From contig CAZRWH010000006.1 in NCBI GenBank assembly GCA_964603905.1, positions 3,224 to 46,755 of the forward strand: DNA of 43,532 nucleotides. Reading direction: 5' to 3'. The notes below the pieces were generated by a model that was not told where the DNA came from, searched no databases, and saw only the letters and a list, made by a program, of their open reading frames with translations. Position 1 is the first letter of the stretch; the number at the start of each line of letters is the position of its first letter. The DNA comes from an uncultured Candidatus Peribacteria bacterium (lineage in GTDB: Bacteria; Patescibacteriota; Gracilibacteria; UBA1369; UBA12470). The translations under genes were made by a program, and so were the position numbers. Shown here one piece after another: positions 4,452-42,666 of the stretch.

Positions 4452-4467
4452 CCAAAGCACAAGACCG

Positions 4468-4488
4468 GCGACTTGCGACCCGCGACTA
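4468..4488. repeat. heptamer array GCGACTT GCGACCC GCGACTA in the PBP 5' leader
   Basis: Three phase-locked GCGACNN units ending 10 nt before the ATG at 4499. Confidence 0.6.
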
Positions 4489-4498
4489 ACACAAGCAA

Positions 4499-9781: not shown

Positions 9782-9899
9782 CTTAGCTTTTTTTGTTAAG
9801 CGAAAAAGTATCAGCAGTGCTACTATTTTCTCCTGATCGTAAGATCAAGAGAAAGAGTAAGCGATGCCACGCAGGAGCTAAACAAAAAAATCCCCTAAG
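9782..9899. other. copy A of a repeated structured element: a long hairpin enclosing a ~58-nt conserved core
   Basis: Arms TTTTTTTGTTAAGC (9788-9801) and GCTAAACAAAAAAA (9877-9890), plus outer CTTAG/CTAAG. Core 9819-9877 is about 85% identical to 30514-30571. The right arm overlaps the stop codon of the 104-aa gene. Confidence 0.6.
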
Positions 9900-10209
9900 C
9901 AGTACCACTAAGATACAACTCCCTAAAATGCGCAAAAGCTTGAGCAAAAACCTGTTGATAATTTGGAAGATTCTCTCGAATATACTGCTCAACTTGTTCA
10001 GCACTCATGTCATCAGCCTCAATTCTCCCCTGGAAATCAGCTCTTTTATCCTCCGGCAAAGCCTCAAGAACAGAAAGCATCAATTTATCTTCAAGACGAA
10101 TATAAAGGTCTTGAATCATTTGTTCACGTTCAGCTTCAGGAAGCTCTGACATACCTGCCTCAACAAGTAATCCTTCAAGAAATTTCTTAATATTTGGATC
10201 CATTTCCAT
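9895..10209 (-). CDS. small acidic helical hypothetical protein (104 aa)
   Basis: ATG-initiated ORF 56 nt downstream of the giant gene stop, on the same strand. Confidence 0.6.
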   Translation of the reverse strand: MEMDPNIKKFLEGLLVEAGMSELPEAEREQMIQDLYIRLEDKLMLSVLEALPEDKRADFQGRIEADDMSAEQVEQYIRENLPNYQQVFAQAFAHFRELYLSGTA

Positions 10210-10265: not shown

Positions 10266-13200
10266 TTATTCACCTGGGACTTCGTCAGTACTATTTTCCA
10301 TCCATCCAGTAGCACCATCCGGCATACTCAATTCTGCATGATCATGCTCCGGTTCAACACCTTCTACCGGAACCTCGTCAGTTCCAGAAGCAACAGGAGG
10401 TGGCGCCAAATCAGGAGTTTTCACTGGTGGAAGATCTTCAATTCGAGTAGTCCCAACCGGCTCAGGAAGTTCTAAATCATCTTCGGTCACCTCTTCTGGT
10501 TCTGGTTCAGGAAGGTCTAGATCGTCTGCCTCAACCTTTGTCAAAACCTCTTCTTGTTCAGCAACCTCAAGATTTGGAACTTTTCCTTCAAACGCCATTG
10601 CTTGACCATTGCTTGCTATAACACTCTTCAGGTTTGGCCATCTATCACGCAAAGAAATAATGTCACCGTCAGGGACCTGTGTACCTGCGACGTTAAGCTC
10701 TTCAAGCAAAGGACAGTTATAAAGAGAAGTCATATCAACAAGATCTGGCGAATCACTCAGGTCCGCTTTTTTCAATCCAGAACAGTTCCTCAAAGACCCA
10801 ACATCTTTCACTCCAGAAAGATCTATCTCAGAAACATGAGCCGCGGTTTCAACAAAACCTGTAAGATACACACTCAACATTTCCCATTTCATGTTATCTG
10901 TAGCAGTTACTCTATAGGTACCATCTTCCAAAAGCTCTATGTTTTTCATGCCAACAACTTTTTCAATAAGGGAGATTGCACTTTTATCAATTCTAGGATC
11001 TGTCTTTTCTCTTTCAGAAATTGCAAACCCTCCATGATCCTCAATTTGCTCAGGAGTTTTTCCAACACTAGCAAGTGAAGGATTTACCTCCAACATATCT
11101 GTTCTCTCCGTAGCACCAATATCCAAATCGTGAAAATCCGGAACTTCAGGACCTTGCTTCTCAATTTGCAAAGAATTAATGCCAGTAGGATCAGTATCTT
11201 CAAGGACTTCCCAATCAGTGTCGATAACATCATCCATTTCAATTTGAGGAACAGGTCTAGCAGGCAAAAGATTGTATCCTTCTAAAACAGTATCATTAGC
11301 ATGATATTCATCTTTAAATCCAAACCGAACAATATCACTAGTAAAAGCTCCATTATTCTCGACAACAACACGCCTCAACAACGTAAATGTTCTCAAAACC
11401 TCCTTAACAAACTCCTCTTCAGACGCCAACTCTTCTCCTAAATAAACCTCAGTCACATAAGTCATAGATTGAAACAACTCTTTCTGACGAGCACGATACT
11501 CCGTCATAAATGTTTGCATTTGATCTTTATTCCTAAACACAATTCCAAGCTGCGACTCCGCAACCTCAATAATATCTTCGACAGAGTCAGCAATCGAAGC
11601 CGGAATACCATATTTGTCTTCCAAAACTTTGGTGTCAACTGATCCAAACCCATTAACAACCTCTTGTTGCTGTTCAAAGGTTTTACCAGGGTCTGTAACT
11701 TCTTCTTTATCTTGTTTTTCTTCGGGCTCTGGATAAACCTCTGGCGCCTCTTTAGGATCAAAAGTAGACGGATCACCTATCCTATTAATTTCAGGGTTTG
11801 GTGCTTTTTGTTCAGCAACTTCTTCCTCGGCAGGGGTGTCTTCAGTTCCAAGATTAACAGGATCTGGAGCATCAGCAACATCCAAAGGAACAGTTGGTTC
11901 AGACACAATATCAGAAACCGGCTGTGTAGACTCAACAATCGATTCCCCAGAAATACTTTCTGGGTCAATAGTTGGCTCAGAAGGCACCTCATCAGCACCA
12001 CCCAGTTGCGCTTGAAGTTCAGAAACATCAAAAATCGCTGTATCTCCACCATGAGTAGGAGGAGCAGAACCGACACCCAAAGATTGCGACATTGCAGATT
12101 TAGCACCTTCACTACTGCTAGAAGAGTAAGGGATATATCCAGCGAATATTTTTCGCCCACTATCCTCTTCAAACAAATGACCACCCGCCCCATTCAAAAG
12201 CAAAGGATAATCAACACGGAAAACCGCACCTTCAGCCCCCTGAGGAGAAGAAATACCTTCAACCTCAACATCTGAAGCTCCTTTCTCAAACTGTTCAGGC
12301 AAATCACCTTCAAGAGTGTCATACAAAGCAACATGCCTATACTCATATCCTAACTCTGCCGCCATTTTGGTAAACGTTTCAATATAACTATCTCCCTCGA
12401 CAACAGTTCTATTTATCTTGTCAGCCAAAGGTGGAAGCTCATTAGGCATCGCCTCTCTAACTATTTGCATAAATGGAGCAATTTTATATCCAAAAACTCT
12501 CAAAAGATTTCTCTTGAAAGTATTTACAACCTCTTCGGTTTTTTCTGGAGAAATATATCTACCACCACCTACAAATTCACCACTCCTAGAAATATTAAGC
12601 TCTGCTGCAGAATGCTCACGTATTCCTTTTAGTAGCACACTTAAAGCATTCGCTGCCTCACCAGAAAGAGGCATAAGTTCATGACCAGGATCATTACGAT
12701 GCTCAATCACAAAACCAATAAAACTCAACGCTTGTACCATCTCCTCAAAAGCTGCCTCGGCGCCGTTAGTTAATTGCTCAAGAAGCTCACCATAGACCGC
12801 CCAATCAACATATGGATCAAGTCCTTTCTGGCTTTCAACTGCAACAATATTTTTAGAAAGAGTAACCGCCTTATCAATATGAGTAAAATAATCAATAAGA
12901 AACGGCGAATCAATAATAGCCTTCAAAGCTTCTCGAACCTCAACATTAACAACACACGCCTCTAGAACCCCTGCATCATCCGGAAGCAACGACTCACGAA
13001 CATTCTTCGGCAATGTAAATTCATCTCCAGCTCTCTCCGGCATTTCAAGTGCAGTAGCAGACAAATTCAAAACCCAAGAATCATCCTGGTCAGGCTCTCC
13101 ATCAACAAGCTCCATCGGCTCACCGGTAAGAGCCTCATGTTCTCTTACAGCAGCTTCAACAGGCCCAATTTGCACAGGAACAAGCTCTTCAAGCAAAGGC

Positions 13201-16200
13201 TCTTGTTTAACATCTTCAGTAGTTTCTAAAACAGGTTCTTCCGGTTTCTCGGCAAACTCAGGAGCACCATCAAATTCACGCAACACCGGAGGTGGACCTG
13301 GATCGACTTGAGCTGGGTTTTCCGCAGAAACAGACCCTGAAATTGGTTCTAAGTCAAATTCAGAATGTTCTGCCTCATCTGCCACCTGCTCACTGCCATC
13401 TGTTATCTCTTCAACCTCCCCAAACGGCACAATCTTTTTGCCTAAAGGAATAAATTCTGCCCTGCCTGGATAAGGTGACGTTTTTTCTTTATCAATAAGA
13501 TGGAACACTGGACGTGCAACACGAACAATGAGAGGTCTTGCTTCGTACTCTGTATCTACATCCTCGAGAGGAAGCGCAGGAAGCCTCAATTCTCTTATTC
13601 CAATTACTTTCTCATCACGCAATTCATAGTCAAAAGCATCAGCAACATACAAAGGGATATGTTCATATTTCCCATTTAATTTCATAGAAACATTATTAAC
13701 CAAATCCCTAATACCACCAGAGAACTCAGAATGAATATCCTTGTCGTTAACCTTTAAATCCCCACATCTTGCCTCTACTTCCCCAGATAAAACAGGTACC
13801 TCGTTAGGCAAAGCTTCAACTACAAATTGAAGAGATCTGACTATAGGACAAACTACATGATTAAGAAGCATATCCATTTTGTTTCCCATTTGCCTTTGAA
13901 TCGCTTCAGGCCCCGTGCCGAAATTGTATTTAGGCTCAAACAACAAATGCTTTAATCGCAAAGCCTCGGACTCAGAAAAAGACATTTCCTCAAGGTTTTC
14001 ACTAGTAGCAAATTTTCTCAAAACATCAAAACGCAAAAGAGCATTGTAAGCACCTTTATTATAATCTTCCCACATCTCACGATACTCAGGACTAACATCA
14101 GCTTGTTTCAACAATTCATTACTATCTAATACAGCCTGCATCGTACGCTTCTCAAGAGCAGCTAATTCAGGCGAACCAACAAACTCACGATAGAATTCGA
14201 CGACAGGTCCAAAATTCTCAAAAGTATTTTTTACACTAGCAATCACATCCGGATATTCAGAAAGAGGCTTTCTTTCCCCTTCATCTATACCCAACTGCTG
14301 CGCTAAAGAATTAATATCAAAGCTTTGAGTCTCTTCAACCTGCTCACTGTCATCTGTCATCTGTGATCTGTCATCTTCTGCCGCCGTCTCTGCTCCTTGC
14401 TGACTACTGACTACTGACTCTACCGCCGCCCCACTGTCCACTGTCCTCTGTCCACTGTCCTCTGTAACCCTCTCCAACTCCGCCCTAGCCTCAGCTTCAG
14501 CAATACGAATATTCTCCCTCTCTATTGTAGTATCAATCCAATCAACAACTTGATCCCTACCTTCAAGATTCTTTTCTGGAGAACCTTCAAAAATAACTCT
14601 TCTAAGATTTGGAATGTATCTTAACTTATGAGCAATTGTAGTAATATTAAAATCAAAAACTTCGCCAGACAACTTGACCGATTTCAAACGCCTACGGAGC
14701 TCTTCATTCTCATCAATCAAAGCTCTGAACGAATAACTATGCGTAAAAATTGCATAATCGTCCAGGGTCAACTCTATGCCATCTCCCTCTTCTTCTTTTT
14801 CGAACTTCCAGCCCCTGTCACTGATTTCAGAGAGGAGAGTGTCTTCCCCCAAAAACTCCTTAACCTTTTCTTCACCCCTCAAGCTTTCTTTCGCCTTTCC
14901 AGGATAAGTTATCTTCCTCAAATTTTTCGCCCCTCTAAGAGCATCACGAACAACTTCAGGTTTTTCAATAAGAGCAGCAGGCAACATAACCTCATTCAAA
15001 GCCTCAGCAACCTCAGGACGCTTCAACTCTTCCTTAAGAACAGCAAGTTGATCCTCATCACCGATCCAAACATCAATAGCCTTGCCCTCAGCCTGCTCTT
15101 GAATGTTTTCAAACTTACCTTCAAGACTTTTTGCAACAGAAACTACATCGACAGACTCAACATCTTTCTCAGTTGGTTTCTCCACATCGTCCAACTCAGG
15201 ACCAACAGGCCCAGGTCCAACTGGAGGCACACCTCCGTCATCTATATATGGGTCCGTTGAATCTTGTTCATCGTCTAAATCGTCAGAGTCGCCATAAAGG
15301 AATTCATGTAATTTATCGCTAACATCAAAAACCTCCACCCATCTTCCATCCTTCCTAAATCCAATCCTCTGTAAATTAACCGCCTTTTTAAGAACCTCTT
15401 TCAATCTTGGTAAATCCGTAAACTCTTCATCAAGGGAAATATACCCCAGTACATTTGCAACATCAGGGTCATTCAATTCCTCCTCCAGCAAGTCAATTTG
15501 AGACTCATAAGCTCCAAGTATCGCAATATAATCACCAGGCTCATTATCCACAATCATAGCCCCCTGAAACTTGCCCGAAAGTCTATTTTTTATAGCCAGT
15601 TTTTTCTCGTGAAAAAGATCCTCCTCAGAATCAACCGGAGGAGACCCACCAAGAACTATAACTACAGGGTTCAAAAATCTTTCAACAGCCTCCCTATCTT
15701 CATAATATTCCTTATTAGGCAAATACAAACCTTCTAAATTCTTTGCTTTTTTTAGTATTCTTATAAGCTTTTGTTTCTGCTCAAAATCAAACTCGTCCTT
15801 AATCCCAATTTGATACAATACCTTAACAACATCAGGGTCATTAAGCTCTTCATCTAAAATATCAAGCTGGTCTGGACCTAAATTCATATAAATCATATTT
15901 TTTTCTCGGTCTGTAGGATGACCGACCATCATAGCCCCATCAAACTTTTTCGAAAACCTCATTCTTATAGCCTGACAATCGTCGTAAGGAAGACCAGACT
16001 CAATAGCAGGATCTTCAATCTCCCCAATCGGAGCTACTTTGAGATCAGATGGTTGTTCCGCATCTGCTCCTTGCTCTCTGCTCTCTGCCATCTCTTCCAC
16101 CGCCCCACTGTCCACTGTCCCCTGTTCACTACCCACTGTCCCCCCCGAAGGCCCAACAGGCTCACTTGCATCAGCAGGTCCATCAATCGGCTCCAAGTTA

Positions 16201-19200
16201 AATTCGGACACCTCTTCTGACGCTTCCGCCGCCTCACTGTCATCTGTCATCTGTTCTCTGTCATCTGCTTCCGCCTCATCTGCCGCCCCACTGCCCACTG
16301 TTCTCTGTCCACTGTCCACTGCCCTCCTCGAAGGCCCAACAGGCTCACTTGCATCAGCAGGCCCAGAAGTCGGTTCTAAATTAATTTCAGATACCTCTTC
16401 CGACGCTTCCACATCACTGTCATCTGTCATCTGTTCACTGCCATCTACTGACTCCCCGCTTTCAGTCGCACTGTCATCTTCTGCCGCCTCTTCTGCCGCC
16501 CCACTGTCATCTGTCCCCTGTTCACTATCCACTATCCCCCCAGACGGCCCAACAGGCTCACCGCCATCACCAGGTCCATCAATCGGATCTAAACCAAAGT
16601 CATCTTTCGGCAAATCCACACCTCCCCAGTCCCATTCAGTCCAAGGAGTTGGACCAACAGTAGGCTCAGACAATTCATACGCAGCCTCCATATCTATAGG
16701 TTTTCCGTCAGGACCAAGAATGTTTCCATACCTATCAACATCAGGAAGCTGAGAACGCTCTCCATCACGTTGCGCTTTCTCAAGAGCAACCGGACTATAA
16801 GCAACTATAGGAGGAGCAATGAAAGCATCATGAGTACCCTCTTTTTCAATTAAATAAGAAGCTTGAGGACAATCAGCAGGTTCCGTTGGAACATTAAACA
16901 AATGCTGTGGCTGACCATCTTCCCAGTCGGCGATATAATCTCCAGGATTTACAACATCGTCACTGCCAGGGATAACAAGTTTATCAAGACTTCCATCTCC
17001 TTTTATCATCGCAAGTGAACTCAACATATTATCAGGCCCACGTTGAGCACACATTATGTATTCTCCAAGGAACTTCGGCTTAGCACCAGAAGTGCCCCAA
17101 AGAAGTTTTCCAACATCACTACTGAATGTAGCCTCTCCACTAGAATCAATCGTAAACGGTAGATGACGAACAACACCACTACCATCTTTCACAGCAGCAT
17201 ATAGAGCAATTTCACCTTTATTAAAGGCAGCTGCAACATCAAGTCCAGGGCCACCAACAGTTTGAGTAGGTTGACCTGCACCTTGTTTCAGCATCTCTTT
17301 GATACTCAAAACCACATTACCACTAGGATCAACGCCATCAGTTCCTCCGAACCATAGTCGTTGTTCTTGAACAAGCTCAACACCTTCACCAGAAACATCA
17401 GGAGTTCCATTGTGCCAGTGATCTCCAAGTTTTTCTTCTACAAATCCAAGGCCGCTCCATTGAGAAGGAGTCATACTTCCAGTAGATACTGTAGTCAGTG
17501 TTGGAACAGTTGTGTATCCGCTACCGGTAGTAGCAACTGTAATACCTTGCGATCTCAAATAAGTTTCAGCATTGCTAGAGAAAACACCCGGACTGTCATA
17601 CCAATAAGAGTCAGGTGAAACATGCCCCACTGGAATAAGTCCACGTCCTTCTAAATAAGTAATCAAAGACTCAGCATCCGCAACATAACTTCCTGCAAGA
17701 ATTCCGTTATTAACAATCGAACAGTTATCAATCAACCATTGTTGAGTAACAGGACCTGGATCAGGTGCATCAGACGGCATTTGAATAAGAACAGGCCTTC
17801 CATCCACCATAACCGTTTTATCAATAATCGGTCCTGTATAAACATCAACCTCAGTACACCCTCCATAACCAATCGGATCACCAACATCAAAACCTTCAGC
17901 TGTAAGATAATCCAGAGAAGGCTGAGTCAAAAGACCGTTATTTCCATAAACAATCCTGCTCGGATCAAGACCATTATCAACAGCAAATTGATTGATCGCA
18001 TTAACCGATCCAACATTAACCGAGACATCTTGTCCAAAAGGACCAAACATCATATTTCCAAGCTTACTAACTCCAAAGAAAGCGCTACTAGTCACACCTC
18101 CGAAAAGCGCACCGATCGAAGCAGCTTTTGCGTTTTCTTTGAACTTAAGCCATTTAAAATCTTTTCTTTTACCTGTAATCATCGCCTCAAGATCTTCACG
18201 AATCGTATCAAGCTTACCAACAAGATCAGCATCAACGTTTCGATCACCAGCATTTTGCTCTAACCAATCACGTCCACGACGAGCTGCAGCAAGAAGAGCT
18301 GTTCTATCACGCTCGACATGTTTGGCGTCGCTGAACGAAATCAAATCGATCCTTCCTCCACCTCTCTCAGGCCTCTCTTCAAAACTCATAGTATTTCTAA
18401 TCTCAATCTCAGCAACCATTCGTACAACAGCCTCGTAATCATTACTTTCGATAGCGTTCTCCATCGAACTAAGAAGCGCAACCGCACTCTCCTTCTCCGA
18501 AGTAACTTCAGAAAGTTTTTTCTGCCAAGTTCCATCTGGAGCTTGAACATAATATCCAAGAGCTTCACGTCTGTTTTGTTGAGCCTCTTGCATAATGACA
18601 GCACGATCTCTGTGCTTACCAGCAAGCAAACCTCCAGCGATAATACCACCAGCAGCGGCAGCAATTGCAGGAGCAGCAGCAGGCGCTACCAAAAGACCAA
18701 GCGCACCACCGATTGCAGCACGACCAGCCATACTAGAACCAACGTTATAAAGTCCGTTCATAACACCATACATACCGATAGAAACTGCTGTCGGCGACAT
18801 AGCCCATTTCAAAGGAGGATATTTCGCACCCCACTTTTGAATTCTAGAAACAGCCTTGTCCGCCCAAGTCCTATCCTCCGCAGACGAGTGAACATCAACA
18901 TTCATCGCCTTTCCGATTTTTAGAGTTAATCTAAAATTATCTAAATCAATATTTGCAACACCTCGCACATGCTTCAGGCGAAGATCTTTCATTCTTTCAG
19001 CAACATCTGTCGCCAAAGTTTCATCACCTTCAGGATCTCCAATATGTTCTCTACGAATCTCATTAATCATTCGAGTCGCACGCCTTTTGAAATCCTCATC
19101 AGTAACAGTTCCAACAAGATACTGCCTAGCAAGATCATCAAGTTGTTCCATATGCATAGTTCCTTCTAGCTCAGCAATCATCTCGTCTGGTGTAACATCA

Positions 19201-21770
19201 CCGGTATTAAACCTATTCAATATCGCATTAACCTCAGCTTCATGAGAAGCGAGATCACCTGCCTCAGCACCGCTCATTGCAGTTTTGAAAAAGTCAGGAT
19301 CTTCTTTTAGCTTCTCTAAATATTCAGCCTCGTACTTATCTACATAACCTTGTCTCGCAATACCACGACCATAACCCTTCACAAAGTGACCAATCTTCTT
19401 GAAGAAAGTCGCTTCTTTACGGTCTTTGTTAATCTCATTAAGTTCTCTTTCGTATCTCTCTTCAGCTAAACGACGAGCGATCTTTTTGAACTTTTCTTCA
19501 ACGTCAACAACAGAGATATCAAGCCCCTCCATAGTTGGTCCCTCAGCAAAAATTACTCTAGGAACTTTTGGACTGTCGTCTACTCCATCTCCTTCTTCAA
19601 TGTAAAGCAAATACTTGTAAAGTGCTCCCCAATCTTTGAATCCTGATTGGGTAAGCAATTTATAAATCCCATAAAGCATCGACAGTTTATTCACATCAAC
19701 ACCCATCTCAGGATGCCCAGAATAAAAAGTGTGTAAATCAGCGAAATCATACTGACCAAAATGCCTAAAGTTTTGACATAAAGTTTTAAGAACAGAATGC
19801 ATCTCGTTTTTAAATGCAGAAGTGCCAAACGCTGTCTGCAAATGATTAGGAAACTTGTTGGCGTTTCCCTCCAAAATCGCAATAACATCTTGGTAATTCC
19901 CAAGGTCAACATCAAGGTAAGCTTTTGCATCCGGACCTATAGTCTCACTGCCTTCAATCTCAACCCATCCACCTTCAGTCTCCTTCAAATTCCAAACTTT
20001 CGGCTGCTTATCTCTCTCTTGATAATGAATCAAAACTGCAAGAACCTTAGCCATATCAGCCTCAATGAAAGTATTCGGAGCAAACATCATTGCTCTTCGG
20101 TACAACGTTTTCATTTCTGGGTCATCACCTCCGCGTTCTTGAATCGCTTTAATCAAATCCCCAATCAAATTGTGCCTAGCTTCAGGATTATTCCTTTGAT
20201 CCTCTTGCAAAAGAGCGTCTATCACGCTATTAACCCCATCAACAACTTTTGGATATTTAATTTCAAAATCGTTCAAACTTATCGCCCCTTCACTTTCGTT
20301 AGAATGAATTTGATAACGACCTTTCCCAGGAGAAATAGTGTTCAAAATCATTCCAGAAATCTTCATTTCAATCCTCTCTCGAATCGCCGGTTTAACCCTA
20401 ACAGCTCCAGCAAAAATCTTAAGATCATTGTCATACTCCGCAAGAGCTTCAGGCATGTTTTCATTAGGACGAGCACCTCCCATTAGCTCATCAAAAAGCT
20501 CACGAGCAATTTTCATCCGACCTTCTCTGTGAGCTTGTTCATCAGATATTTCACCTTCAACTCCTTCACGTCCTTTCGCAAGAATTTGCTCAGGAGTCAG
20601 ATTCGCAATTTTCTCAGCTAACGGCTGCCTAAACATTTCATCAGCAGCACGTTCAAGTTTATTCGCATTCTCTTTACGCGCCACACGTTCAGCCATGTTA
20701 TCAAGATGAGCCTTATAATCAGCTCTATCTTTTTCAATAAGTTCAAGCGCATCCAAAGCTACGGGATCGTTCTTATCAAAGATATAAAAAGGCTCCTCCT
20801 CTCCACCAAACCCCATTCGATCATCATCCCAATAATATTTGGCATCAGCCCCTTCCCCAACCACAATAACATGATTCCATCGAGGCAAATCAGCACCTCC
20901 AGCAAGTTCAAATTGAGTAACAGATTCTATTTTCACTTTCTCGAATAACTCTTTCAAATCATCCTTGTTTTTTTCGCTAAGCTTATCTTCAATTTTGCTA
21001 AATCGACTGTGCAGAACTCTAAGCAAGTATGTCAATTGTTCAGAAGCATCGTTTGGCGATTTAAAGTTCAATTTTTCATACAAATCCGCATACTTTTCTT
21101 TCCCAGCCACAACACCAGCCACAAACTCGTTCAACATCTTTTGATCTCCTTGAACACGAGTTTCAAAACTTTGCCCAAGACGTTCAAGGCGTTTCTCATT
21201 CACATTTTCAATCAAATCAGGAGTTGGGATTGACGCTGGCTCCGGTGTAGGCTCCGCTACAGGCTCTATCATAGGCTCCGTATCACTTTCCTCATCCTCA
21301 ACAGCATCCATATCCACACCCAAATAATCAGCTGCTTCTTCTACAAATTTAACAAAAGGAGACAATGCAGCACCACCTAAGTTAACAAACTCAGTGCTGG
21401 TAAGTCCTTCTGAAACACCCTTTTGATAACCCGACTCCAAAAACCCTTGCATCGATGGACAAAGCTCATACCCTACAACAACAGCACGATGCTCTTTTAA
21501 CCCCTCAGGGAACTGAATATCCTTCCCTTCTTGCTTTGCTTGCCCCCAAACAGGAACGAATTCAGTTAATTCAGTCTTTTGTTCAACAAGCGGGCGCAAC
21601 TTAGCGTAATACTGCATCAACAGTTCAATATCCTTCGCGTCTGCAGCTTCGATTTTGGAAGGTTCAGAATTATCAGCAGTGGTGAATTTTTGAACGATCT
21701 GCTTAAGCCGCCCTATCACTTCGTGGAATTTGGGCGCCTCTCTTCGTTCTGGTGTGTTTTGTGGTGCCAT
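10266..21770 (-). CDS. giant mosaic protein (3,834 aa) with a central glycine-zipper hydrophobic region, repeated modules and a C-terminal LRR-like domain
   Basis: Uninterrupted 11,505-nt ORF with an ATG start. AAIGGALGLLVAPAAAPAIAAAAGGIIAGGLLAG lies at nt ~18615-18818. Tandem modules lie at nt 14532-15962. The LRR-like segment EIDLSGVKDVGSLRNCSGLKKADLSDSPDLVDMTSLYNCPLLEELNVAG lies at nt ~10611-10853. Confidence 0.85.
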   Translation of the reverse strand: MAPQNTPERREAPKFHEVIGRLKQIVQKFTTADNSEPSKIEAADAKDIELLMQYYAKLRPLVEQKTELTEFVPVWGQAKQEGKDIQFPEGLKEHRAVVVGYELCPSMQGFLESGYQKGVSEGLTSTEFVNLGGAALSPFVKFVEEAADYLGVDMDAVEDEESDTEPMIEPVAEPTPEPASIPTPDLIENVNEKRLERLGQSFETRVQGDQKMLNEFVAGVVAGKEKYADLYEKLNFKSPNDASEQLTYLLRVLHSRFSKIEDKLSEKNKDDLKELFEKVKIESVTQFELAGGADLPRWNHVIVVGEGADAKYYWDDDRMGFGGEEEPFYIFDKNDPVALDALELIEKDRADYKAHLDNMAERVARKENANKLERAADEMFRQPLAEKIANLTPEQILAKGREGVEGEISDEQAHREGRMKIARELFDELMGGARPNENMPEALAEYDNDLKIFAGAVRVKPAIRERIEMKISGMILNTISPGKGRYQIHSNESEGAISLNDFEIKYPKVVDGVNSVIDALLQEDQRNNPEARHNLIGDLIKAIQERGGDDPEMKTLYRRAMMFAPNTFIEADMAKVLAVLIHYQERDKQPKVWNLKETEGGWVEIEGSETIGPDAKAYLDVDLGNYQDVIAILEGNANKFPNHLQTAFGTSAFKNEMHSVLKTLCQNFRHFGQYDFADLHTFYSGHPEMGVDVNKLSMLYGIYKLLTQSGFKDWGALYKYLLYIEEGDGVDDSPKVPRVIFAEGPTMEGLDISVVDVEEKFKKIARRLAEERYERELNEINKDRKEATFFKKIGHFVKGYGRGIARQGYVDKYEAEYLEKLKEDPDFFKTAMSGAEAGDLASHEAEVNAILNRFNTGDVTPDEMIAELEGTMHMEQLDDLARQYLVGTVTDEDFKRRATRMINEIRREHIGDPEGDETLATDVAERMKDLRLKHVRGVANIDLDNFRLTLKIGKAMNVDVHSSAEDRTWADKAVSRIQKWGAKYPPLKWAMSPTAVSIGMYGVMNGLYNVGSSMAGRAAIGGALGLLVAPAAAPAIAAAAGGIIAGGLLAGKHRDRAVIMQEAQQNRREALGYYVQAPDGTWQKKLSEVTSEKESAVALLSSMENAIESNDYEAVVRMVAEIEIRNTMSFEERPERGGGRIDLISFSDAKHVERDRTALLAAARRGRDWLEQNAGDRNVDADLVGKLDTIREDLEAMITGKRKDFKWLKFKENAKAASIGALFGGVTSSAFFGVSKLGNMMFGPFGQDVSVNVGSVNAINQFAVDNGLDPSRIVYGNNGLLTQPSLDYLTAEGFDVGDPIGYGGCTEVDVYTGPIIDKTVMVDGRPVLIQMPSDAPDPGPVTQQWLIDNCSIVNNGILAGSYVADAESLITYLEGRGLIPVGHVSPDSYWYDSPGVFSSNAETYLRSQGITVATTGSGYTTVPTLTTVSTGSMTPSQWSGLGFVEEKLGDHWHNGTPDVSGEGVELVQEQRLWFGGTDGVDPSGNVVLSIKEMLKQGAGQPTQTVGGPGLDVAAAFNKGEIALYAAVKDGSGVVRHLPFTIDSSGEATFSSDVGKLLWGTSGAKPKFLGEYIMCAQRGPDNMLSSLAMIKGDGSLDKLVIPGSDDVVNPGDYIADWEDGQPQHLFNVPTEPADCPQASYLIEKEGTHDAFIAPPIVAYSPVALEKAQRDGERSQLPDVDRYGNILGPDGKPIDMEAAYELSEPTVGPTPWTEWDWGGVDLPKDDFGLDPIDGPGDGGEPVGPSGGIVDSEQGTDDSGAAEEAAEDDSATESGESVDGSEQMTDDSDVEASEEVSEINLEPTSGPADASEPVGPSRRAVDSGQRTVGSGAADEAEADDREQMTDDSEAAEASEEVSEFNLEPIDGPADASEPVGPSGGTVGSEQGTVDSGAVEEMAESREQGADAEQPSDLKVAPIGEIEDPAIESGLPYDDCQAIRMRFSKKFDGAMMVGHPTDREKNMIYMNLGPDQLDILDEELNDPDVVKVLYQIGIKDEFDFEQKQKLIRILKKAKNLEGLYLPNKEYYEDREAVERFLNPVVIVLGGSPPVDSEEDLFHEKKLAIKNRLSGKFQGAMIVDNEPGDYIAILGAYESQIDLLEEELNDPDVANVLGYISLDEEFTDLPRLKEVLKKAVNLQRIGFRKDGRWVEVFDVSDKLHEFLYGDSDDLDDEQDSTDPYIDDGGVPPVGPGPVGPELDDVEKPTEKDVESVDVVSVAKSLEGKFENIQEQAEGKAIDVWIGDEDQLAVLKEELKRPEVAEALNEVMLPAALIEKPEVVRDALRGAKNLRKITYPGKAKESLRGEEKVKEFLGEDTLLSEISDRGWKFEKEEEGDGIELTLDDYAIFTHSYSFRALIDENEELRRRLKSVKLSGEVFDFNITTIAHKLRYIPNLRRVIFEGSPEKNLEGRDQVVDWIDTTIERENIRIAEAEARAELERVTEDSGQRTVDSGAAVESVVSSQQGAETAAEDDRSQMTDDSEQVEETQSFDINSLAQQLGIDEGERKPLSEYPDVIASVKNTFENFGPVVEFYREFVGSPELAALEKRTMQAVLDSNELLKQADVSPEYREMWEDYNKGAYNALLRFDVLRKFATSENLEEMSFSESEALRLKHLLFEPKYNFGTGPEAIQRQMGNKMDMLLNHVVCPIVRSLQFVVEALPNEVPVLSGEVEARCGDLKVNDKDIHSEFSGGIRDLVNNVSMKLNGKYEHIPLYVADAFDYELRDEKVIGIRELRLPALPLEDVDTEYEARPLIVRVARPVFHLIDKEKTSPYPGRAEFIPLGKKIVPFGEVEEITDGSEQVADEAEHSEFDLEPISGSVSAENPAQVDPGPPPVLREFDGAPEFAEKPEEPVLETTEDVKQEPLLEELVPVQIGPVEAAVREHEALTGEPMELVDGEPDQDDSWVLNLSATALEMPERAGDEFTLPKNVRESLLPDDAGVLEACVVNVEVREALKAIIDSPFLIDYFTHIDKAVTLSKNIVAVESQKGLDPYVDWAVYGELLEQLTNGAEAAFEEMVQALSFIGFVIEHRNDPGHELMPLSGEAANALSVLLKGIREHSAAELNISRSGEFVGGGRYISPEKTEEVVNTFKRNLLRVFGYKIAPFMQIVREAMPNELPPLADKINRTVVEGDSYIETFTKMAAELGYEYRHVALYDTLEGDLPEQFEKGASDVEVEGISSPQGAEGAVFRVDYPLLLNGAGGHLFEEDSGRKIFAGYIPYSSSSSEGAKSAMSQSLGVGSAPPTHGGDTAIFDVSELQAQLGGADEVPSEPTIDPESISGESIVESTQPVSDIVSEPTVPLDVADAPDPVNLGTEDTPAEEEVAEQKAPNPEINRIGDPSTFDPKEAPEVYPEPEEKQDKEEVTDPGKTFEQQQEVVNGFGSVDTKVLEDKYGIPASIADSVEDIIEVAESQLGIVFRNKDQMQTFMTEYRARQKELFQSMTYVTEVYLGEELASEEEFVKEVLRTFTLLRRVVVENNGAFTSDIVRFGFKDEYHANDTVLEGYNLLPARPVPQIEMDDVIDTDWEVLEDTDPTGINSLQIEKQGPEVPDFHDLDIGATERTDMLEVNPSLASVGKTPEQIEDHGGFAISEREKTDPRIDKSAISLIEKVVGMKNIELLEDGTYRVTATDNMKWEMLSVYLTGFVETAAHVSEIDLSGVKDVGSLRNCSGLKKADLSDSPDLVDMTSLYNCPLLEELNVAGTQVPDGDIISLRDRWPNLKSVIASNGQAMAFEGKVPNLEVAEQEEVLTKVEADDLDLPEPEPEEVTEDDLELPEPVGTTRIEDLPPVKTPDLAPPPVASGTDEVPVEGVEPEHDHAELSMPDGATGWMENSTDEVPGE

Positions 21771-22128: not shown

Positions 22129-22163
22129 CACTGTCCACTATCCACTAATCACCAACCACCATC
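22129..22163. repeat. heptamer array CACTGTC CACTATC CACTAAT CACCAAC CACCATC
   Basis: Five phase-locked units spanning the stop codon (22145-22147) and the last 5 codons of the 332-aa gene. Confidence 0.8.
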
Positions 22164-23143
22164 TCCACCCCGCAAACATCAACAATGCGCTTTGCAAACT
22201 TCTCTTTTTCTTGAGCGAGATACTCAGATCTAAGCTCTATCTCAATATCATTTTTCTTGCCATCCAAAACCTTGCACCAATCATAAACACCAAGCATCAT
22301 CCTCTCCATCTGCTCATCGGTAACCTCAAAATATTCTTCAAAAACCGACTGCAGAGCATTTCTAACATGCTGTTCAAAAGCTACAGTACGCGGGTTTTCT
22401 CTCAAAAGTTCATCATGCCAAAGAACCAAAATGTCCAACATGGCTCTTTCAAACTTAGGCTTAACAGCCGCAAGAATTTCAGCTTCTTCCAAATCAACAA
22501 CGTGAGCGTCAGCACCTCTTGCCATTAGCTCTGATGCTTTTTTCAGAAAGTGACTAAAAGCTTTACGCTTCTCAAAGAACCCAGCATCATTCTTTAATCT
22601 ACGAGCAATATCATTTCTCACTCGCGTCGAAGCCAAAGACCTAGCGGTCATGGCACCAAAAATTCGATCCATCATTTTCAAGTCAGACAATCTCTCAGAA
22701 CCAGACCATTTATGCAGTCTCTTCAAAACCTCGTCTGCAAAACCAATTTTATCACTACGAGCAGCTACTTTATCGCCCACCTCAAGTTCAACATCAACAT
22801 TCTCAGACAAATTACTCACTCCAATCACCTCAAGATCACCAGACCCACCAGCGCGTCTCAAAGCCTGCAAAAGCTTCTCCTCTGTCTCAGAAAAATAAAG
22901 AGACATTGTAATATTTGGAGTCCCAGCTTCATATTGTCTTTTTTTATCATAAAACAGCTCCATAAACGCTCTAATCCCCTCAAGGTCCCAAGGCACTGCA
23001 ACATCAAGCCTCAAACGAAGAATCACCTCAGATGCAACCTCATAAAAGTCACTCTGCAAATACCGTGTCTCCATATCCTGTGGCTCAGAAATAGCCGAAT
23101 CGGAAAGCTCATCAATGTCAGGTGCAAAAGTTGGAGTGTTCAT
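22145..23143 (-). CDS. hypothetical cytoplasmic protein (332 aa)
   Basis: ATG-initiated ORF. No signal peptide and no recognisable motif. Confidence 0.7.
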   Translation of the reverse strand: MNTPTFAPDIDELSDSAISEPQDMETRYLQSDFYEVASEVILRLRLDVAVPWDLEGIRAFMELFYDKKRQYEAGTPNITMSLYFSETEEKLLQALRRAGGSGDLEVIGVSNLSENVDVELEVGDKVAARSDKIGFADEVLKRLHKWSGSERLSDLKMMDRIFGAMTARSLASTRVRNDIARRLKNDAGFFEKRKAFSHFLKKASELMARGADAHVVDLEEAEILAAVKPKFERAMLDILVLWHDELLRENPRTVAFEQHVRNALQSVFEEYFEVTDEQMERMMLGVYDWCKVLDGKKNDIEIELRSEYLAQEKEKFAKRIVDVCGVEMVVGD

Positions 23144-24878: not shown

Positions 24879-24940
24879 GCATTATCTTTCAAGTATCAAG
24901 CATGAAAAATAAAAAACCACACCATCCTCTACCCTCTATT

Positions 24941-24989
24941 ATCTAATATCTGTCATCTGTCATCTGTCATCTAAAATCTGTCATCTAAC
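24941..24989. repeat. heptamer array ATCTAAT (ATCTGTC)x3 ATCTAAA ATCTGTC ATCTAAC
   Basis: Seven phase-locked units overlapping the stop codon (24985-24987) of the 231-aa lipoprotein gene. Confidence 0.9.
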
Positions 24990-25680
24990 TCCCCCAATCA
25001 AGAACCTCTGTAGCGACATAATCAACCTGCGCACTAAACCCTTTGTAATAACTCAATTCAAACCTCTCGCTGCCAGCAATTGGATCATCAAGTCCGATTT
25101 CAACATCCCAAACATCGCCATTCGGTTCTTGCATAAAAGGCAAAACCATATGCATAAAAGGACCTGGATCAGGAGAGACAGCCGACATACCACCATCACA
25201 CGAAATTGAAGGCATCAACATATCTAACTGAGGCAAGCTCGGCATATGGAATGTAATGTGATCTTCATATCCTTCGAAGTTACCATCTTCCCAAGCCTGA
25301 GTCCCTTGAGTCGCCATAATCGCATCAAGCTCGAAACTCCTAGGCTTGTAATCAATTTCTGAAAGAACAGCAACACAATCCTGAGTCGCAATACCATATT
25401 TTTGAGAAGTATAATCTGTTATTGCAATCGTGTTATTTTGATCAATAAGATTTCCATCAATATCAAACGTAAGTTCAATTCGGAAGTCACCCTTGCTAGT
25501 CCAAACCTGCATCCCTTCCGTCGTCATAGCCTCAGGATCAAAGTCGATATCAACCGTTCCTACCATTGTAAAAAGACGATTAACATCTTCCACTTCCCTG
25601 TCGTAATCCTCTTGAAGATCAGCACCTCCACATCCAGTCAGTAGCGCGCTAAGCGCCAAAATTGAAATTAGTTTTTTCAT
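24985..25680 (-). CDS. hypothetical lipoprotein (231 aa)
   Basis: MKKLISILALSALLTGC has a canonical lipobox (LTGC). Confidence 0.8.
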   Translation of the reverse strand: MKKLISILALSALLTGCGGADLQEDYDREVEDVNRLFTMVGTVDIDFDPEAMTTEGMQVWTSKGDFRIELTFDIDGNLIDQNNTIAITDYTSQKYGIATQDCVAVLSEIDYKPRSFELDAIMATQGTQAWEDGNFEGYEDHITFHMPSLPQLDMLMPSISCDGGMSAVSPDPGPFMHMVLPFMQEPNGDVWDVEIGLDDPIAGSERFELSYYKGFSAQVDYVATEVLDWGS

Positions 25681-25898: not shown

Positions 25899-25969
25899 AA
25901 ATGGTTATTTTAAAAACTAGGACCTAATCGTAACAAAGCAAAAAGCACCCAACAAGCAAAAACACCATG

Positions 25970-25998
25970 ACTACAACTACCACTACTCACTACAACTA
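25970..25998. repeat. ACTACN hexamer/heptamer repeat (actacaactaccactactcactacaactag)
   Basis: CTAC recurs at 6-7-nt spacing. The repeat overlaps the rpmG stop codon. It closely resembles the poly-Thr-coding tract at 35728-35755. Confidence 0.6.
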
Positions 25999-26169
25999 GC
26001 TCTTGGTATCCTTCCTCTTGTGAACAAGAGACCCGCGACAGTTCGAACAGTATTTTTTCTTAGTTTTCAGGGTAGTTTCGTTCTCTCTTTTGTTGTAAGT
26101 AGAGATGTAGTTACCCGCATTACATTTCTCGCAATACCATGTGCAGAATGTACTTTTTCCTCTAGCCAT
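25996..26169 (-). CDS. rpmG: 50S ribosomal protein L33 (57 aa; not in the supplied ORF track)
   Basis: Manual translation gives MARGKSTFCTWYCEKCNAGNYISTYNKRENETTLKTKKKYCSNCRGSLVHKRKDTKS. It has the CxxC...CxxC zinc ribbon and the KKYC..C......H.. L33 signature. Confidence 0.9.
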   Translation of the reverse strand: MARGKSTFCTWYCEKCNAGNYISTYNKRENETTLKTKKKYCSNCRGSLVHKRKDTKS

Positions 26170-26291: not shown

Positions 26292-26310
26292 GTTTTCGCA
26301 TCACGAAAAC
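26292..26310. other. 7-bp hairpin GTTTTCG-CATCA-CGAAAAC preceding a heptamer array
   Basis: Perfect stem read directly. It is followed by AAAACACCATC and then heptamers. Confidence 0.5.
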
Positions 26311-26315
26311 ACCAT

Positions 26316-26350
26316 CACTGCTCTCTGCTGACTGCTGATTGCTGACTAAC
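26316..26350. repeat. heptamer array CACTGCT CTCTGCT GACTGCT GATTGCT GACTAAC
   Basis: Five phase-locked units ending 10 nt before the ATG at 26361. The first 17 nt are identical to 42587-42603. Confidence 0.85.
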
Positions 26351-28823: not shown

Positions 28824-30320
28824 ATGGCACCAAACAAACCAGGGGGGAAACCGGACGGACACACTCGCATGGGAACAACAAAAATGGCAGGCAGAGACCT
28901 TAATGACGCAACTCAAGCACTTGATGAAGCAGACTCACTAGAAGCTGCATGGGCATCATTAATGAACGACGGCGAAACACCCAACACACCTGTACACAAC
29001 CCACGCGCGCCAAAAGATTTTGGTTTTGTAGGTGAAGAAAACAACACACCAGCAATCCAAAGCGGAGCCGACTTAATCTCACACGCAGCCCAAGAAGGAA
29101 CTACCCGACTAGAAACTGGAGATCTAGAGATGAGAAACGCCAACGAAACACTTTTAGCAAAACTCAACAAGCTTAGAGGTCCTGGACAAATTTTCGAAGA
29201 CGTGAGCGACGAAGGTATCGAGTTAATTTCAAAATTCGCAAGAACAACCGACATTTTCGAAGGAGATGTCGTAATTGGAACTGAAAAAACCTTCCAAGAT
29301 GCTGCACTCAGAGAAACCGGAATGGCCATTATTTTGAGTGACCAATTCAATATTGAAACACCAAGAGGAAACCTTCCAATAAAACAAGGTAGAACGCTTG
29401 GAGAACGAGGATTCCGTGGAGAAGAACGAGCAAACGAAGTAAAAGCAAAAACACCAGGAACGCTAATGCTGATAGATTCGAACCTCAAAGGACTTAGGTC
29501 TATGGGATTATCTATTGAAGACTCAAACGCAATTCGCCTTAACATCCTTAGAAACAGCTACCTAGAAAGCGCAAACAACAACTTGAGTTTCGTAGACCCT
29601 AGATTCAAGCCAGTTCTAGCAAGAGCATTGCAACCCCTGACAAGAATTCTTCAAGACGAAATTCTCACAACCAACGAACAACGCAGAAGACAGCTAGTCG
29701 ACCCCAAAAGACTTCCACATAGCAAATTAGTACCGAGAGAAGACAAGTACGAAGCACTTATAGTCTTAGATGGAAACTACCAAGGCCCTATTGTACAAGT
29801 TAGAAACAACGAATCAGGGGAAATAATCAGCGAAATCCTAGCACCTACAGTTCTATTCATTCTTAGGGCAGCAGGAATGCCAGTTGATCAGCTTTCTGCA
29901 CAACTTTTTGTAGAGCAAAAATTCTTCGCAACACCAGTAGAAGTAAGAGGATCAGACAGACCAGCAGACGAACAAGAAAAAGTTATCGAGATTCTGGAAA
30001 CAATCGAAAACACCCTTCTGAGCATAACAAATAAAACCTATGACGGATGGCTAAAAGAGCGAGAACTACGCAGAGCAGAAAGAGCGGTAGGTCAACAACC
30101 TAGGAGAAAAAAGAAGCCTGCAAAAAAGAAACCAGAAGCCCCAGAAAGCAAAGGGTTAGTCCAATCATTCGTTGATGACCAACGCGCACAAGCGCAAGAA
30201 CTTGTTGAATCTGCCAATAAAGGAACAATGTCATCGTGGCTTAGAACACAATGGGAAAGGTCTACAATCAAAGCAGCAATCAAGGCAATCGACGACTCAG
30301 ATAAACCGAGACGGAGATAG
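28824..30320 (+). CDS. hypothetical protein (498 aa) with cNMP-binding-like signature and a Lys/Arg-rich tail
   Basis: GERGFRGEERANEVKAKTPGTLMLI parallels CRP [20 protein letters not shown] (nt ~29181-29498). The C-terminus contains PRRKKKPAKKKPE. The gap from the upstream gene is 11 nt. Confidence 0.45.
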   Translation: MAPNKPGGKPDGHTRMGTTKMAGRDLNDATQALDEADSLEAAWASLMNDGETPNTPVHNPRAPKDFGFVGEENNTPAIQSGADLISHAAQEGTTRLETGDLEMRNANETLLAKLNKLRGPGQIFEDVSDEGIELISKFARTTDIFEGDVVIGTEKTFQDAALRETGMAIILSDQFNIETPRGNLPIKQGRTLGERGFRGEERANEVKAKTPGTLMLIDSNLKGLRSMGLSIEDSNAIRLNILRNSYLESANNNLSFVDPRFKPVLARALQPLTRILQDEILTTNEQRRRQLVDPKRLPHSKLVPREDKYEALIVLDGNYQGPIVQVRNNESGEIISEILAPTVLFILRAAGMPVDQLSAQLFVEQKFFATPVEVRGSDRPADEQEKVIEILETIENTLLSITNKTYDGWLKERELRRAERAVGQQPRRKKKPAKKKPEAPESKGLVQSFVDDQRAQAQELVESANKGTMSSWLRTQWERSTIKAAIKAIDDSDKPRRR

Positions 30321-30359
30321 TGTTAGTGAACAGTGGACAGTGGGCAGTGAACAGTGGAT
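30318..30359. repeat. heptamer array TAGTGTT AGTGAAC AGTGGAC AGTGGGC AGTGAAC AGTGGAT
   Basis: Six phase-locked units starting on the TAG stop of the 498-aa gene. This is the reverse complement of the CACTGTY family. Confidence 0.9.
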
Positions 30360-35548: not shown

Positions 35549-36319
35549 ATGAAGAAAATTCTCATCCCAATACTAATCCTAGCCATCCTGGCCATACCAG
35601 CCACATACTTTGGCAAAAAAGTCATAAGAGACTATCAATACAGCGTCACGCATTCAACTTTAGAGCCAATCACCCTGGAAACAGAGCCTTCTGCAAATAA
35701 CAGTTTTCCTAAGGAAAACACCATAACTACAACCACCACTACTACTACCACTGAAGAAATCAATTTAAAAATTGATTTCTTCTCCCAGGCCCCATACGCC
35801 GACTGGTCAATGCCATACCAAGAAGCTTGTGAGGAAGCCAGCCTGATCCTCGCATACAATTTCGTCCAGGGGATCACGATGAACAAGGAGGAGTTCCACA
35901 TCGAACTTCTCAAGATGATAGATTGGGAGACCGCACATTTTGGCTCATACGAGCACACGACGGTTGATGAAACAGCTGAGATGCTTGATGATTTTTATGA
36001 TTTTCAAAACTACAAAATTCTCACAGATCCAAGCATCGACAACCTCAAAAACGAGCTAGCATCCGGAAATCCAATCGTTGCACCATTTGCAGGACGAGAG
36101 CTTGGGAACCCCAACTTTACAGGAGAAGGGCCGTACTACCACATGCTTGTAATCCGCGGATACGACGAAGAATATTTCATCACAAACGACGTTGGCACCC
36201 GCCTTGGCGAGAACTACCAATACACTCATGACGTACTAATGAACGCACTTCATGACTGGCACGATACCGATATTTCTACAGAAGGAGAGAAAAAAGTTTT
36301 AGTCCTCCTTGGATCCTAA
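35549..36319 (+). CDS. membrane-anchored C39-like (papain-fold) cysteine peptidase domain protein
   Basis: N-terminal TM helix and a T9 run. FFSQAPY...YQEACEEASLILAY is the candidate catalytic Cys. YHMLVIRGYDEEYFITNDVG holds the candidate His and Asn/Asp. Confidence 0.5.
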   Translation: MKKILIPILILAILAIPATYFGKKVIRDYQYSVTHSTLEPITLETEPSANNSFPKENTITTTTTTTTTEEINLKIDFFSQAPYADWSMPYQEACEEASLILAYNFVQGITMNKEEFHIELLKMIDWETAHFGSYEHTTVDETAEMLDDFYDFQNYKILTDPSIDNLKNELASGNPIVAPFAGRELGNPNFTGEGPYYHMLVIRGYDEEYFITNDVGTRLGENYQYTHDVLMNALHDWHDTDISTEGEKKVLVLLGS

Positions 36320-39629: not shown

Positions 39630-39711
39630 GTTATTTTGATTTAAATTCAGGACGCAACCATACTATTTTTAGGCGCAAAGATAAAGGCTAAAACCGCAAC
39701 TACACACCAAT

Positions 39712-39774
39712 CACTAATCACTGTTCACTGTTCACTGTTCACTGTTCACTGTTCACTGTCCACTGTTCGCTATC
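39712..39774. repeat. heptamer array CACTAAT (CACTGTT)x5 CACTGTC CACTGTT CGCTATC
   Basis: Nine phase-locked units. The murJ stop codon (39753-39755) and last 6-7 codons lie inside the array. Confidence 0.92.
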
Positions 39775-41171: not shown

Positions 41172-41197
41172 TACAGGATAAATTCTAAAAAAATCTA

Positions 41198-41833: not shown

Positions 41834-41913
41834 TACACGATATTACAAAAATCAAGCTCCTTGAAAAGCCGGCCCTCTAAAACAAAATAGCAAAATTGTA
41901 ACATTTCAAAACA

Positions 41914-42574: not shown

Positions 42575-42589
42575 ATAAAAAATTCCCAT

Positions 42590-42666
42590 CACTGCTCTCT
42601 GCTCCTTGCTAACTGCTGACTAAAACCATCACTACTGACTACTGACTCATTCCTACTAACTAAAAA
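42590..42666. repeat. composite heptamer array CACTGCT CTCTGCT CCTTGCT AACTGCT GACTAAA ACCATCA CTACTGA CTACTGA CTCATTC CTACTAA CTAAAAA
   Basis: Eleven phase-locked units. CTCTGCTCCTTGCT and ACTACTGACTACTGACTC recur verbatim inside the giant ORF at 14388-14422. Confidence 0.85.

Follow-up and report, generated by a model that had tools for sequence, protein, structure and literature searches.

Short CTGYYMW heptanucleotide arrays at gene ends in a Candidatus Peribacteria genome, probably also serving as decaying linker sequence in a giant open reading frame

Short tandemly repeated repetitive sequences (STRRs) of heterocyst-forming cyanobacteria are the closest described counterpart of the elements reported here, which are short arrays of a degenerate heptanucleotide, CTGYYMW, present both beside genes and within a giant open reading frame (ORF) in a 43,532-nt stretch of DNA from an uncultured Candidatus Peribacteria bacterium (assembly GCA_964603905.1, contig CAZRWH010000006.1, positions 3,224 to 46,755 of the forward strand; this whole stretch is the window, to which all coordinates refer). 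One STRR reportedly lies inside a functional RNase P RNA gene (Vioque 1997). As described in cyanobacteria, these 7-bp repeats are intergenic within operons and of unknown function, transcript stability or translational coupling having been proposed (PMC2670836). The next closest case is Geobacter metallireducens, for which excerpts of the report by Aklujkar et al. 2009 (PMC2700814) describe multicopy families of 4-5 tandem heptanucleotide repeats, within and between genes, that were proposed as regulatory RNA or as regulator-binding sites; the main family there has the GC-rich unit GGACCGG, and another, of five heptamers with the consensus MTYCTGA, is given as a 'global regulator binding site'. 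In Haemophilus influenzae, a heptanucleotide simple sequence repeat (SSR), the (ATCTTTC)n tract of hmw1A/hmw2A, has 13-24 units and drives phase variation of hmwA (PMC8262952).

The arrays of the window share with STRRs the tandem 7-bp units, the few copies per array and the many dispersed arrays chiefly between genes. They differ in their host, which is a bacterium of the Candidate Phyla Radiation (CPR) and not a heterocystous cyanobacterium, in having CTGYYMW units in place of the canonical STRR1-3 units, and in that they abut stop codons, carry an A-rich leader and are translated in protein-coding ORFs. Like the Geobacter elements, they are multicopy tandem heptamers of both intergenic and intragenic location, although the phylum is different and the excerpted report describes no link to linker peptides or stop codons. 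By rotation, the Geobacter consensus MTYCTGA yields CTGACTC and CTGACTA, two units found here (42631-42649, 14400-14419); most units of the window do not fit that consensus, homology is not implied, and the match may be a coincidence. A limited literature search found no report of dispersed heptanucleotide arrays in the CPR. The genome carries a dispersed family of short CTGYYMW arrays, mostly right at gene ends, and these do not act like a proven regulator site or like a contingency locus. The explanation we favor, at a probability of about 0.6, is that STRR-like heptamer arrays have been co-opted as disordered linker sequence of the giant protein, where they are decaying, and that they are not working contingency switches.

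The giant ORF (10266-21770, minus strand; 11.5 kb and 3834 aa in the ORF list and its translation) had been reported, in a preliminary description made from the sequence alone, to show 7-nt periodicity at five places (13376-13410, 14346-14464, 16061-16144, 16235-16325 and 16415-16540), and this holds at all five: identity at lag 7 is 0.46-0.64 over these blocks, with other lags at about 0.2-0.4. Tandem Repeats Finder (TRF) delimits nine period-7 arrays within the ORF (14347-76, 14400-19, 14431-65, 16063-88, 16105-41, 16237-67, 16287-324, 16417-46 and 16523-37), of 2.1-5.4 copies each and with 73-100% matches. A uniform window scan yielded 12 period-7 segments versus 0-1 for each other period between 3 and 12, and triplet shuffles (n = 200) gave a mean of 0.01 period-7 segments. 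Of the autocorrelation and Fourier analyses that the preliminary description had proposed for periods 7 and 3, autocorrelation shows period 7 within the blocks; over the whole ORF there is no period-7 peak, the Fourier power being 205 at period 3 and about 1 at other periods, and this very strong period-3 signal marks the ORF as coding.

A 7-nt periodicity in coding DNA could result from selection for a peptide repeat of 7 residues (of the type TVDSGQx or QMTDDSE), without any process at the DNA level, and a weak 7-aa repeat is indeed present (e.g. DSGQRTV/DSGAAVE). To set the peptide apart from the DNA, 3000 synonymous recodings of each block were generated, with codons sampled according to the usage of the ORF itself. 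Identity at lag 7 in the codon-extended blocks was 0.45-0.65, compared to 0.26-0.33 in the recodings (z = 5.1-8.4), and the observed value was reached by 0/3000 recodings in every block. At lag 21, identity was no higher than the peptides predict, as a peptide-level origin would have it; since lag 7 lies beyond all recodings whereas lag 21 does not, the periodicity belongs to the DNA. In addition, 92% of the codon differences between the paralogous copies described below are non-synonymous, so the peptide is not conserved, and identical units are present in non-coding DNA. On these three grounds a peptide-level origin was rejected as scarcely tenable. The 7-nt periodicity is a real feature of DNA-level origin, and conservation of amino acid repeats, which the preliminary description had named as part of an outcome that would overturn its proposal, does not account for it.

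The blocks are nevertheless neither uninterrupted nor phase-locked, as had been claimed for them. Each is made up of 2-4 short arrays that are degenerate, have 2-5 units and in no case contain 3 perfect units, and the lag-7 match track shows non-periodic spacers of 20-45 nt, such as CTTCTGCCGCC, between the arrays of a block. The register of the CTG core shifts within every main block (1,4,2,5,4 in the block at 14346; 3,5 at 16061; 2,3,0 at 16235; 2,5,0,3,1,5 at 16415). Together with a block-wide period-7 Fourier power that shows no excess over the recoding control in 4/5 blocks, these shifts rule out a block-wide phase lock. The unit counts of 17, 12, 13 and 18 given earlier are merely block length divided by 7, and the "exactly 28" and "exactly 42" codons are length arithmetic only, the block ends being off codon boundaries.

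Aligned on the sense strand, the five block regions prove to be paralogs, five copies (M1 to M5) of one linker module, so the four main blocks are not separate events. The module measures about 40-70 aa, has an acidic Ser/Gly/Asp/Gln/Thr composition, and consists in order of an ACAGTGG-type array, the spacer GGGGCGGC, a variable insert and an ATGACAG-type array ending in CAGTGA; for every array in the giant ORF the CAG-containing strand is the sense strand. M1-M3 stand in tandem with a period of 183 nt (TRF: 1.9 copies, 83% identity), which corresponds to the EPVGPS...NLEP repeats seen in the translation by the preliminary description, and M4 and M5 are dispersed, at 1.7 kb and about 2.7-3.0 kb from the tandem copies. 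By module alignment, M1 (16346-16560, minus strand; EPVGPS...NLEPTSGPADAS) carries two arrays, a degenerate one of ACAGTGG type (16500-16540) and one of ATGACAG type (16415-16446). M2 (16165-16345, minus strand), a member of the 143-nt direct repeat family D2 (82% identity), has these arrays at 16285-16326 and 16235-16267, and the truncated M3 (16010-16164, minus strand, from the module alignment) combines an array of ACAGTGG type (16103-16141) with one of GAGCAGA type (16061-16093). M4 (14330-14470, minus strand), which lacks the EPVGPS and NLEP flanks, contains an ACAGTGG-type (14429-14466), an AGTCAGT-type (14391-14419) and an ATGACAG-type array (14344-14378), and is related to M3 through direct repeat family D8 (16058-16144 and 14384-14470, 77% identity). 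The weakest copy, M5 (13376-13410, minus strand), comprises 4 or 5 CTGCCAT-like units encoding EEITDGSEQVADE followed by SEFDLEPISG; its lag-7 identity is 0.59-0.64 (z = 5.1), and it aligns with M1-M3. The peptides DSGQRTVDSGA, EQMTDDSE and VVSSQQGAE are present in the minus-strand translation, as had been noted.

A single-sequence AlphaFold2 model of aa 1730-2480 predicts coil (pLDDT <50) across M1-M3 (aa 1730-1925) and most of M4, and alpha/beta domains with pLDDT 60-90 between M1-M3 and M4. The view of the modules as linkers between predicted folded alpha/beta domains is thus supported, though weakly, by the model. Paralogous arrays are held in one shared frame, the ACAGTGG-type of M1-M4 as well as the ATGACAG-type of M1, M2 and M4. 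They contain no indels at a divergence of 17-19% (62/324 differing nt in the ACAGTGG-type arrays, 22/126 in the ATGACAG-type), which indicates that unit number has not changed since the duplications. Their codon differences comprise 59 non-synonymous and 5 synonymous changes, so the encoded peptide is essentially unconstrained.

The state of the coding arrays relates to the stop codons that their perfect forms would contain. A perfect (ATGACAG)n tract has TGA in every frame and a perfect (AGTCAGT)n tract has TAG, while (ACAGTGG)n contains no stop in any frame. Each of the three ATGACAG arrays in coding sequence is altered right at the would-be TGA (AGA-TCA-CAG, AGA-GAA-CAG and AGT-GAA-CAG), the AGTCAGT array ends at 2.9 units, one codon short of TAG, and the Trp codon of ACAGTGG has become Arg or Gly in 4/4 copies. 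The longest perfect runs in the ORF have 2.0-2.9 units (maximum 20 nt), those outside it 3.6 (24948-72) and 6.0 (39718-59) units. A return to the perfect repeat would truncate the giant protein.

The preliminary description had proposed the blocks as candidate hotspots of length or phase variation in a surface protein. Its frame arithmetic is correct: only changes of 21 nt keep the frame, the unit length not being a multiple of 3, and in simulations a change of 1 or 2 units at any of the nine arrays brought a stop within 4-40 codons. Phase variation through contingency loci is common in genes of giant, fast-evolving envelope-type proteins, and the giant protein, fast-evolving and probably envelope-associated in an episymbiotic lineage, would be of that type. 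The hmwA case shows that heptanucleotide SSRs do phase-vary such a gene, one that likewise encodes a very large, fast-evolving surface protein and whose expression slippage would alter (PMC8262952). An active contingency locus, in which slippage of the coding arrays would toggle the protein between full-length and truncated forms (1-2 units) or vary linker length (3 units), is nonetheless unlikely here. The hmwA tract is a perfect promoter repeat of 13-24 units (PMC8262952), whereas the coding tracts are degenerate, with 73-91% matches by TRF, have at most 2.9 perfect units and include no long near-perfect tract. They are located mid-gene (aa 1744-2799), away from the 5' end, and no variation was observed in them, neither as unit-number differences among the paralogous arrays nor in M1, which is identical in a second assembly from a population that differs at 5 single-nucleotide polymorphisms (SNPs) elsewhere. 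The idea of a hotspot therefore finds no support.

This second assembly consists of Logan contigs of SRR8146440, reached via neighboring genes and covering 23313-16332 as well as the stretch from about 12137 down through a small gene at 9895-10209. Contig L006 reproduces 23313-16332 at 100% identity, including the block at 16415-16540 (M1), and comes from an independent assembly of that run; the 5 SNPs are those between L001 and the window. Because the window derives from a metagenome-assembled contig, and because exact repeats interrupt the Logan contigs (L006 stops at position 16332 on a 33-nt exact repeat between linker modules, and L002 stops at 39747 within a 42-nt perfect (TCACTGT)6 array), the repeats might have produced a chimeric or collapsed join, with the blocks not truly in one ORF. 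Such an artefact is very improbable: the 11.5-kb frame is open across all five modules, the tandem modules are only 73-83% identical and so resolvable by reads, and L006 matches through M1. With the Logan contigs matching the window, there is no sign of misassembly, which the preliminary description had considered as a possible flaw, and no consensus-level length change where this could be checked. The 33-nt exact repeat and the (TCACTGT)6 array break k-mer assemblies of this genome.

Outside the giant ORF, the 43.5-kb window, with just 3.8 kb of intergenic DNA, holds nine perigenic arrays. Six of them overlap a stop codon or lie within 5 nt of one, compared to 1.6 expected under random placement (P ~0.001). 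On the plus strand, an array of 4.9 CCATCTG units (103-140) overlaps the TAG stop of an M16 peptidase gene; a TCCACTA-type array (22134-22161), upstream of the giant gene, covers the final 5 codons of ORF 22145-23143 together with its TAG stop; an array with 3.6 perfect CTGTCAT units (24935-24980) is 4 nt downstream of the TAG stop of ORF 24985-25680; a leader followed by an ACTAC array (25959-25998) is immediately adjacent to the TAG stop of a small L33-like gene on the minus strand (25996-26169); and the longest array, with 6.0 perfect TCACTGT units (39704-39773), encloses the end of murJ, its TGA stop and the 5 codons before it. The only inverted copy, a CCACTGT/TCACTGT-type array on the minus strand (30325-30358), follows the TAG stop of the plus-strand ORF 28824-30320 at a distance of 4 nt. 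In all six cases, the inverted array included, the CAG strand is the sense strand of the gene concerned. The stop is TAG in 5/6 of the array-associated genes and in 4/20 of the other genes (Fisher p = 0.0097), and both murJ and ORF 22145-23143 run 5 codons into their arrays. The small gene at 25996-26169, whose 57-aa product (MARGKSTFCTWYCEKCNAGNY...) is shorter than the 100-aa limit of the ORF listing, was recognized as L33-like by eye.

Two further plus-strand arrays are adjacent to start codons. One consists of the leader AAAACACCATCAC and a 38-nt composite array (26306-26349) ending 12 nt before the ATG at 26361, and the other is a short array read from the sequence, GCGACTT GCGACCC GCGACTA (4466-4490), just upstream of the PBP2 start codon. 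Another array (42586-42663, plus strand) is formed by two adjacent copies of the composite element and contains a 15-mer and a 17-mer that also occur in M4. The site upstream of PBP2 carries a heptamer array in all three related genomes, with unrelated units: GCGACYY in the window, ACTAGGG in relative L003 (9896-9933) and TATAAGC in relative L004 (1409-1426). The presence of an array is conserved at this site and its sequence is not. The CTG strand is the plus strand in 11/12 arrays, and the GC skew of the window, whose G+C content is about 42%, is negative throughout; array orientation could follow the direction of replication instead of transcription. The inverted array at 30325-58 fits a transcription rule, and the arrays at 26315 and 42586 show no clear fit.

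When the arrays were cut into units in the CTG register, coding and perigenic arrays had the same position-frequency profile, C-T-G-Y-Y-M-W on the plus strand, and 25/40 coding units, of 8 unit types, were letter-identical to perigenic ones. The resemblance extends beyond single units. The 38-nt composite element (26312-49) has one further copy with 87% identity at 42586-623, a second with 71% at 42626-63 and a third, with 76%, at 14384-421 in M4 of the giant ORF. The imperfect 15-mer TCTCTGCTCCTTGCT is found exactly at 14387 and 42596 (chance expectation 0.12), and the 17-mer ACTACTGACTACTGACT is common to 14400-19 in M4 and 42631-47, in line with the earlier observation that strings at 14388-14422 recur in the intergenic array at 42597-42650. 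An 18-mer, CCATCACTGCTCTCTGCT, also occurs exactly at two loci (chance expectation 0.01). That two different imperfect units match exactly speaks for common descent and against independent slippage. A second coding case is the ORF of a C39-like peptidase (Pfam Peptidase_C39_2), in which the leader AAAACACCATAAC and an ACTAC-type array (35715-35752, plus strand) are translated as ...ENTITTTTTTTTT. Its run of Thr codons had been compared with the intergenic ACTAC repeat, and the match is stronger than stated, 35/39 positions between 35715-52 and 25959-97, including a non-repetitive 13-nt leader of the form AAAACACCAT(A/G)AC at both sites. A shared origin of the coding and perigenic arrays, as first suggested in the preliminary description, is thus well supported. 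In the wider form AAAACACCAT(C/G/A)AC, the A-rich, non-repetitive leader directly precedes three arrays (25959-25971, 26306-26318 and 35715-35727). When 2 mismatches or fewer are allowed, the window contains 9 occurrences of the motif, always on the plus strand (3.3 expected), and a similar leader, AAACACCTTCAC, precedes an array in the Peribacteria relative L003 (9886-9897).

These shared leaders and composite elements bear on how the arrays entered coding sequence. The Rickettsia palindromic elements (RPEs) of Ogata et al. 2000, of about 100-150 bp, are reportedly inserted in frame in protein genes, the insertion having been shown by orthologs that lack it. The arrays resemble RPEs as a dispersed family of non-coding repeats that is also found in frame in ORFs and translated as tolerated extra peptide. 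They differ from RPEs, which are palindromic and of that greater length, in being tandem heptamers; the units are pyrimidine-rich on one strand and hence not self-complementary, as far as can be told with no inverted-repeat search or folding calculation made. An RPE-like process, the in-frame capture of a dispersed and possibly mobile leader-plus-array element copied into ORFs, and not slippage, would agree with the composite element at three perigenic sites and in the giant ORF (71-87% identity), with the exact 18-mer, with the leader common to 25959 and 35715, and with the leader in L003. We regard it as rather unlikely: the window shows no terminal inverted repeats, target-site duplications or transposase (inverted repeats were not searched for specifically), the different units at the orthologous PBP2 site of three genomes fit local turnover better than transposition, and there is no alignable ortholog without the insertion.

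In the favored reading, that of co-opted and decaying arrays, one heptamer mosaic would have arisen in, or been captured by, a tolerant disordered linker, whether by slippage in place, by in-frame insertion of a composite element or by read-through of a gene-end array. Stops would then have been purged from the mosaic, the module would have spread within the gene by segmental duplication, and the present arrays would only encode a flexible spacer and would be in nearly neutral decay. Several points weigh against this reading. The assembly comparison covers 1/5 blocks (M1) at consensus level, so rare length variants are possible elsewhere. Since the frame requirement makes only 3-unit changes visible when paralogs are compared, the lack of indels has little force as a test, and the avoidance of stops is in part a tautology, given an ORF already known to be open. 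The AlphaFold2 model, from a single sequence and with an overall pTM of 0.27, makes the call of disorder a weak one. Finally, the arrays could have passed from intergenic to coding DNA or could have arisen in parallel from one mutational process.

A broader and tentative interpretation, which we hold to be rather unlikely, is that the CTGYYMW arrays are a distinct, oriented intercistronic element, with a AAAACACCATCAC-type leader and placed on stops, preferentially TAG, or ahead of starts, and at the same time a systematic source of new protein sequence. ORFs would run into arrays, as at the tails of murJ and ORF 22145, a leader plus array would give rise to the poly-Thr tract of the C39-like peptidase, and mosaics would become the domain-joining linkers of the giant protein, possibly via stop-codon loss and gene fusion. 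If true, this would be a concrete route from non-coding to coding sequence, one that contributes to the making of the giant, fast-evolving proteins found in CPR bacteria.

The giant protein is modular, with hydrophobic segments at about aa 1020-1090 and 1290-1310, and may be located at the surface. It has no sequence match in Pfam, NCBIfam or PDB, and its 90% identity cluster has a single member. When the inter-module stretch aa 1905-2435 (531 aa) was searched in a set of 1.84 billion cluster representatives, the only matches were to the giant protein itself and, weakly, to one leucine-rich repeat (LRR) protein; tblastn-confirmed scans of GTDB genomes and JGI metagenomes with the same stretch gave no match. 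A homologue search with aa 1700-2500 and 1-1000 (each among the best 8000 candidates) and with aa 2476-2786 returned zero matches, the protein itself included. By these comparisons it is an orphan. Foldseek searches with the low-confidence model gave weak LRR-type matches only (COI1, TIR1, NLRP; TM ~0.1), at most a hint of LRR-like alpha/beta repeats.

The PBP2 encoded in the window shares 82% identity with its counterpart in a metagenome-assembled genome (MAG) of an uncultured Candidatus Peribacteria bacterium and 78% with the PBP2 of a Patescibacteria MAG, and PBP2-based scans led to three relatives only, L003, L004 and L005, of which L004 and L005 are one population (99.94% identity). These two carry a positional ortholog of the giant gene (L004 4048-11370), adjoining a small conserved gene. 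Only aa 864-1296, the region of the hydrophobic anchor, can be aligned with it (36% identity), the remaining 2000+ residues being unalignable. In L004, which represents a sister lineage, the ortholog has different linkers, with unalignable linker regions and zero heptamer arrays, and the modules are therefore probably young and lineage-specific. The standard genetic code applies in the window: TGA terminates 2/26 genes and is in frame in none of the 3834 codons of the giant ORF, which rules out an alternative code with TGA as a sense codon. An Rfam scan of the window found tRNA-Thr only, and a scan for promoters and terminators stayed at background level. A 135-nt direct repeat (41197-41331 and 41913-42047, 73% identity) forms the 5' ends of two adjacent plus-strand ORFs of 197 and 202 aa, without Pfam match, which are probably tandem paralogs.

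For the reading of genomes such as this one, a 7-nt periodicity in an ORF should not be equated with a phase-variation switch, as the tracts of the giant gene are too short and degenerate for one and behave as stable paralogous copies. Dispersed heptanucleotide repeats were already known from cyanobacteria and Geobacter; here they occur in a CPR genome and are probably translated as a decaying linker. A single 43-kb window contains them at three stages, outside genes, overlapping gene ends and fully translated, and so may offer a small, clear example of how simple-sequence DNA becomes a disordered linker in a protein, in a genome that is otherwise undergoing strong reduction.

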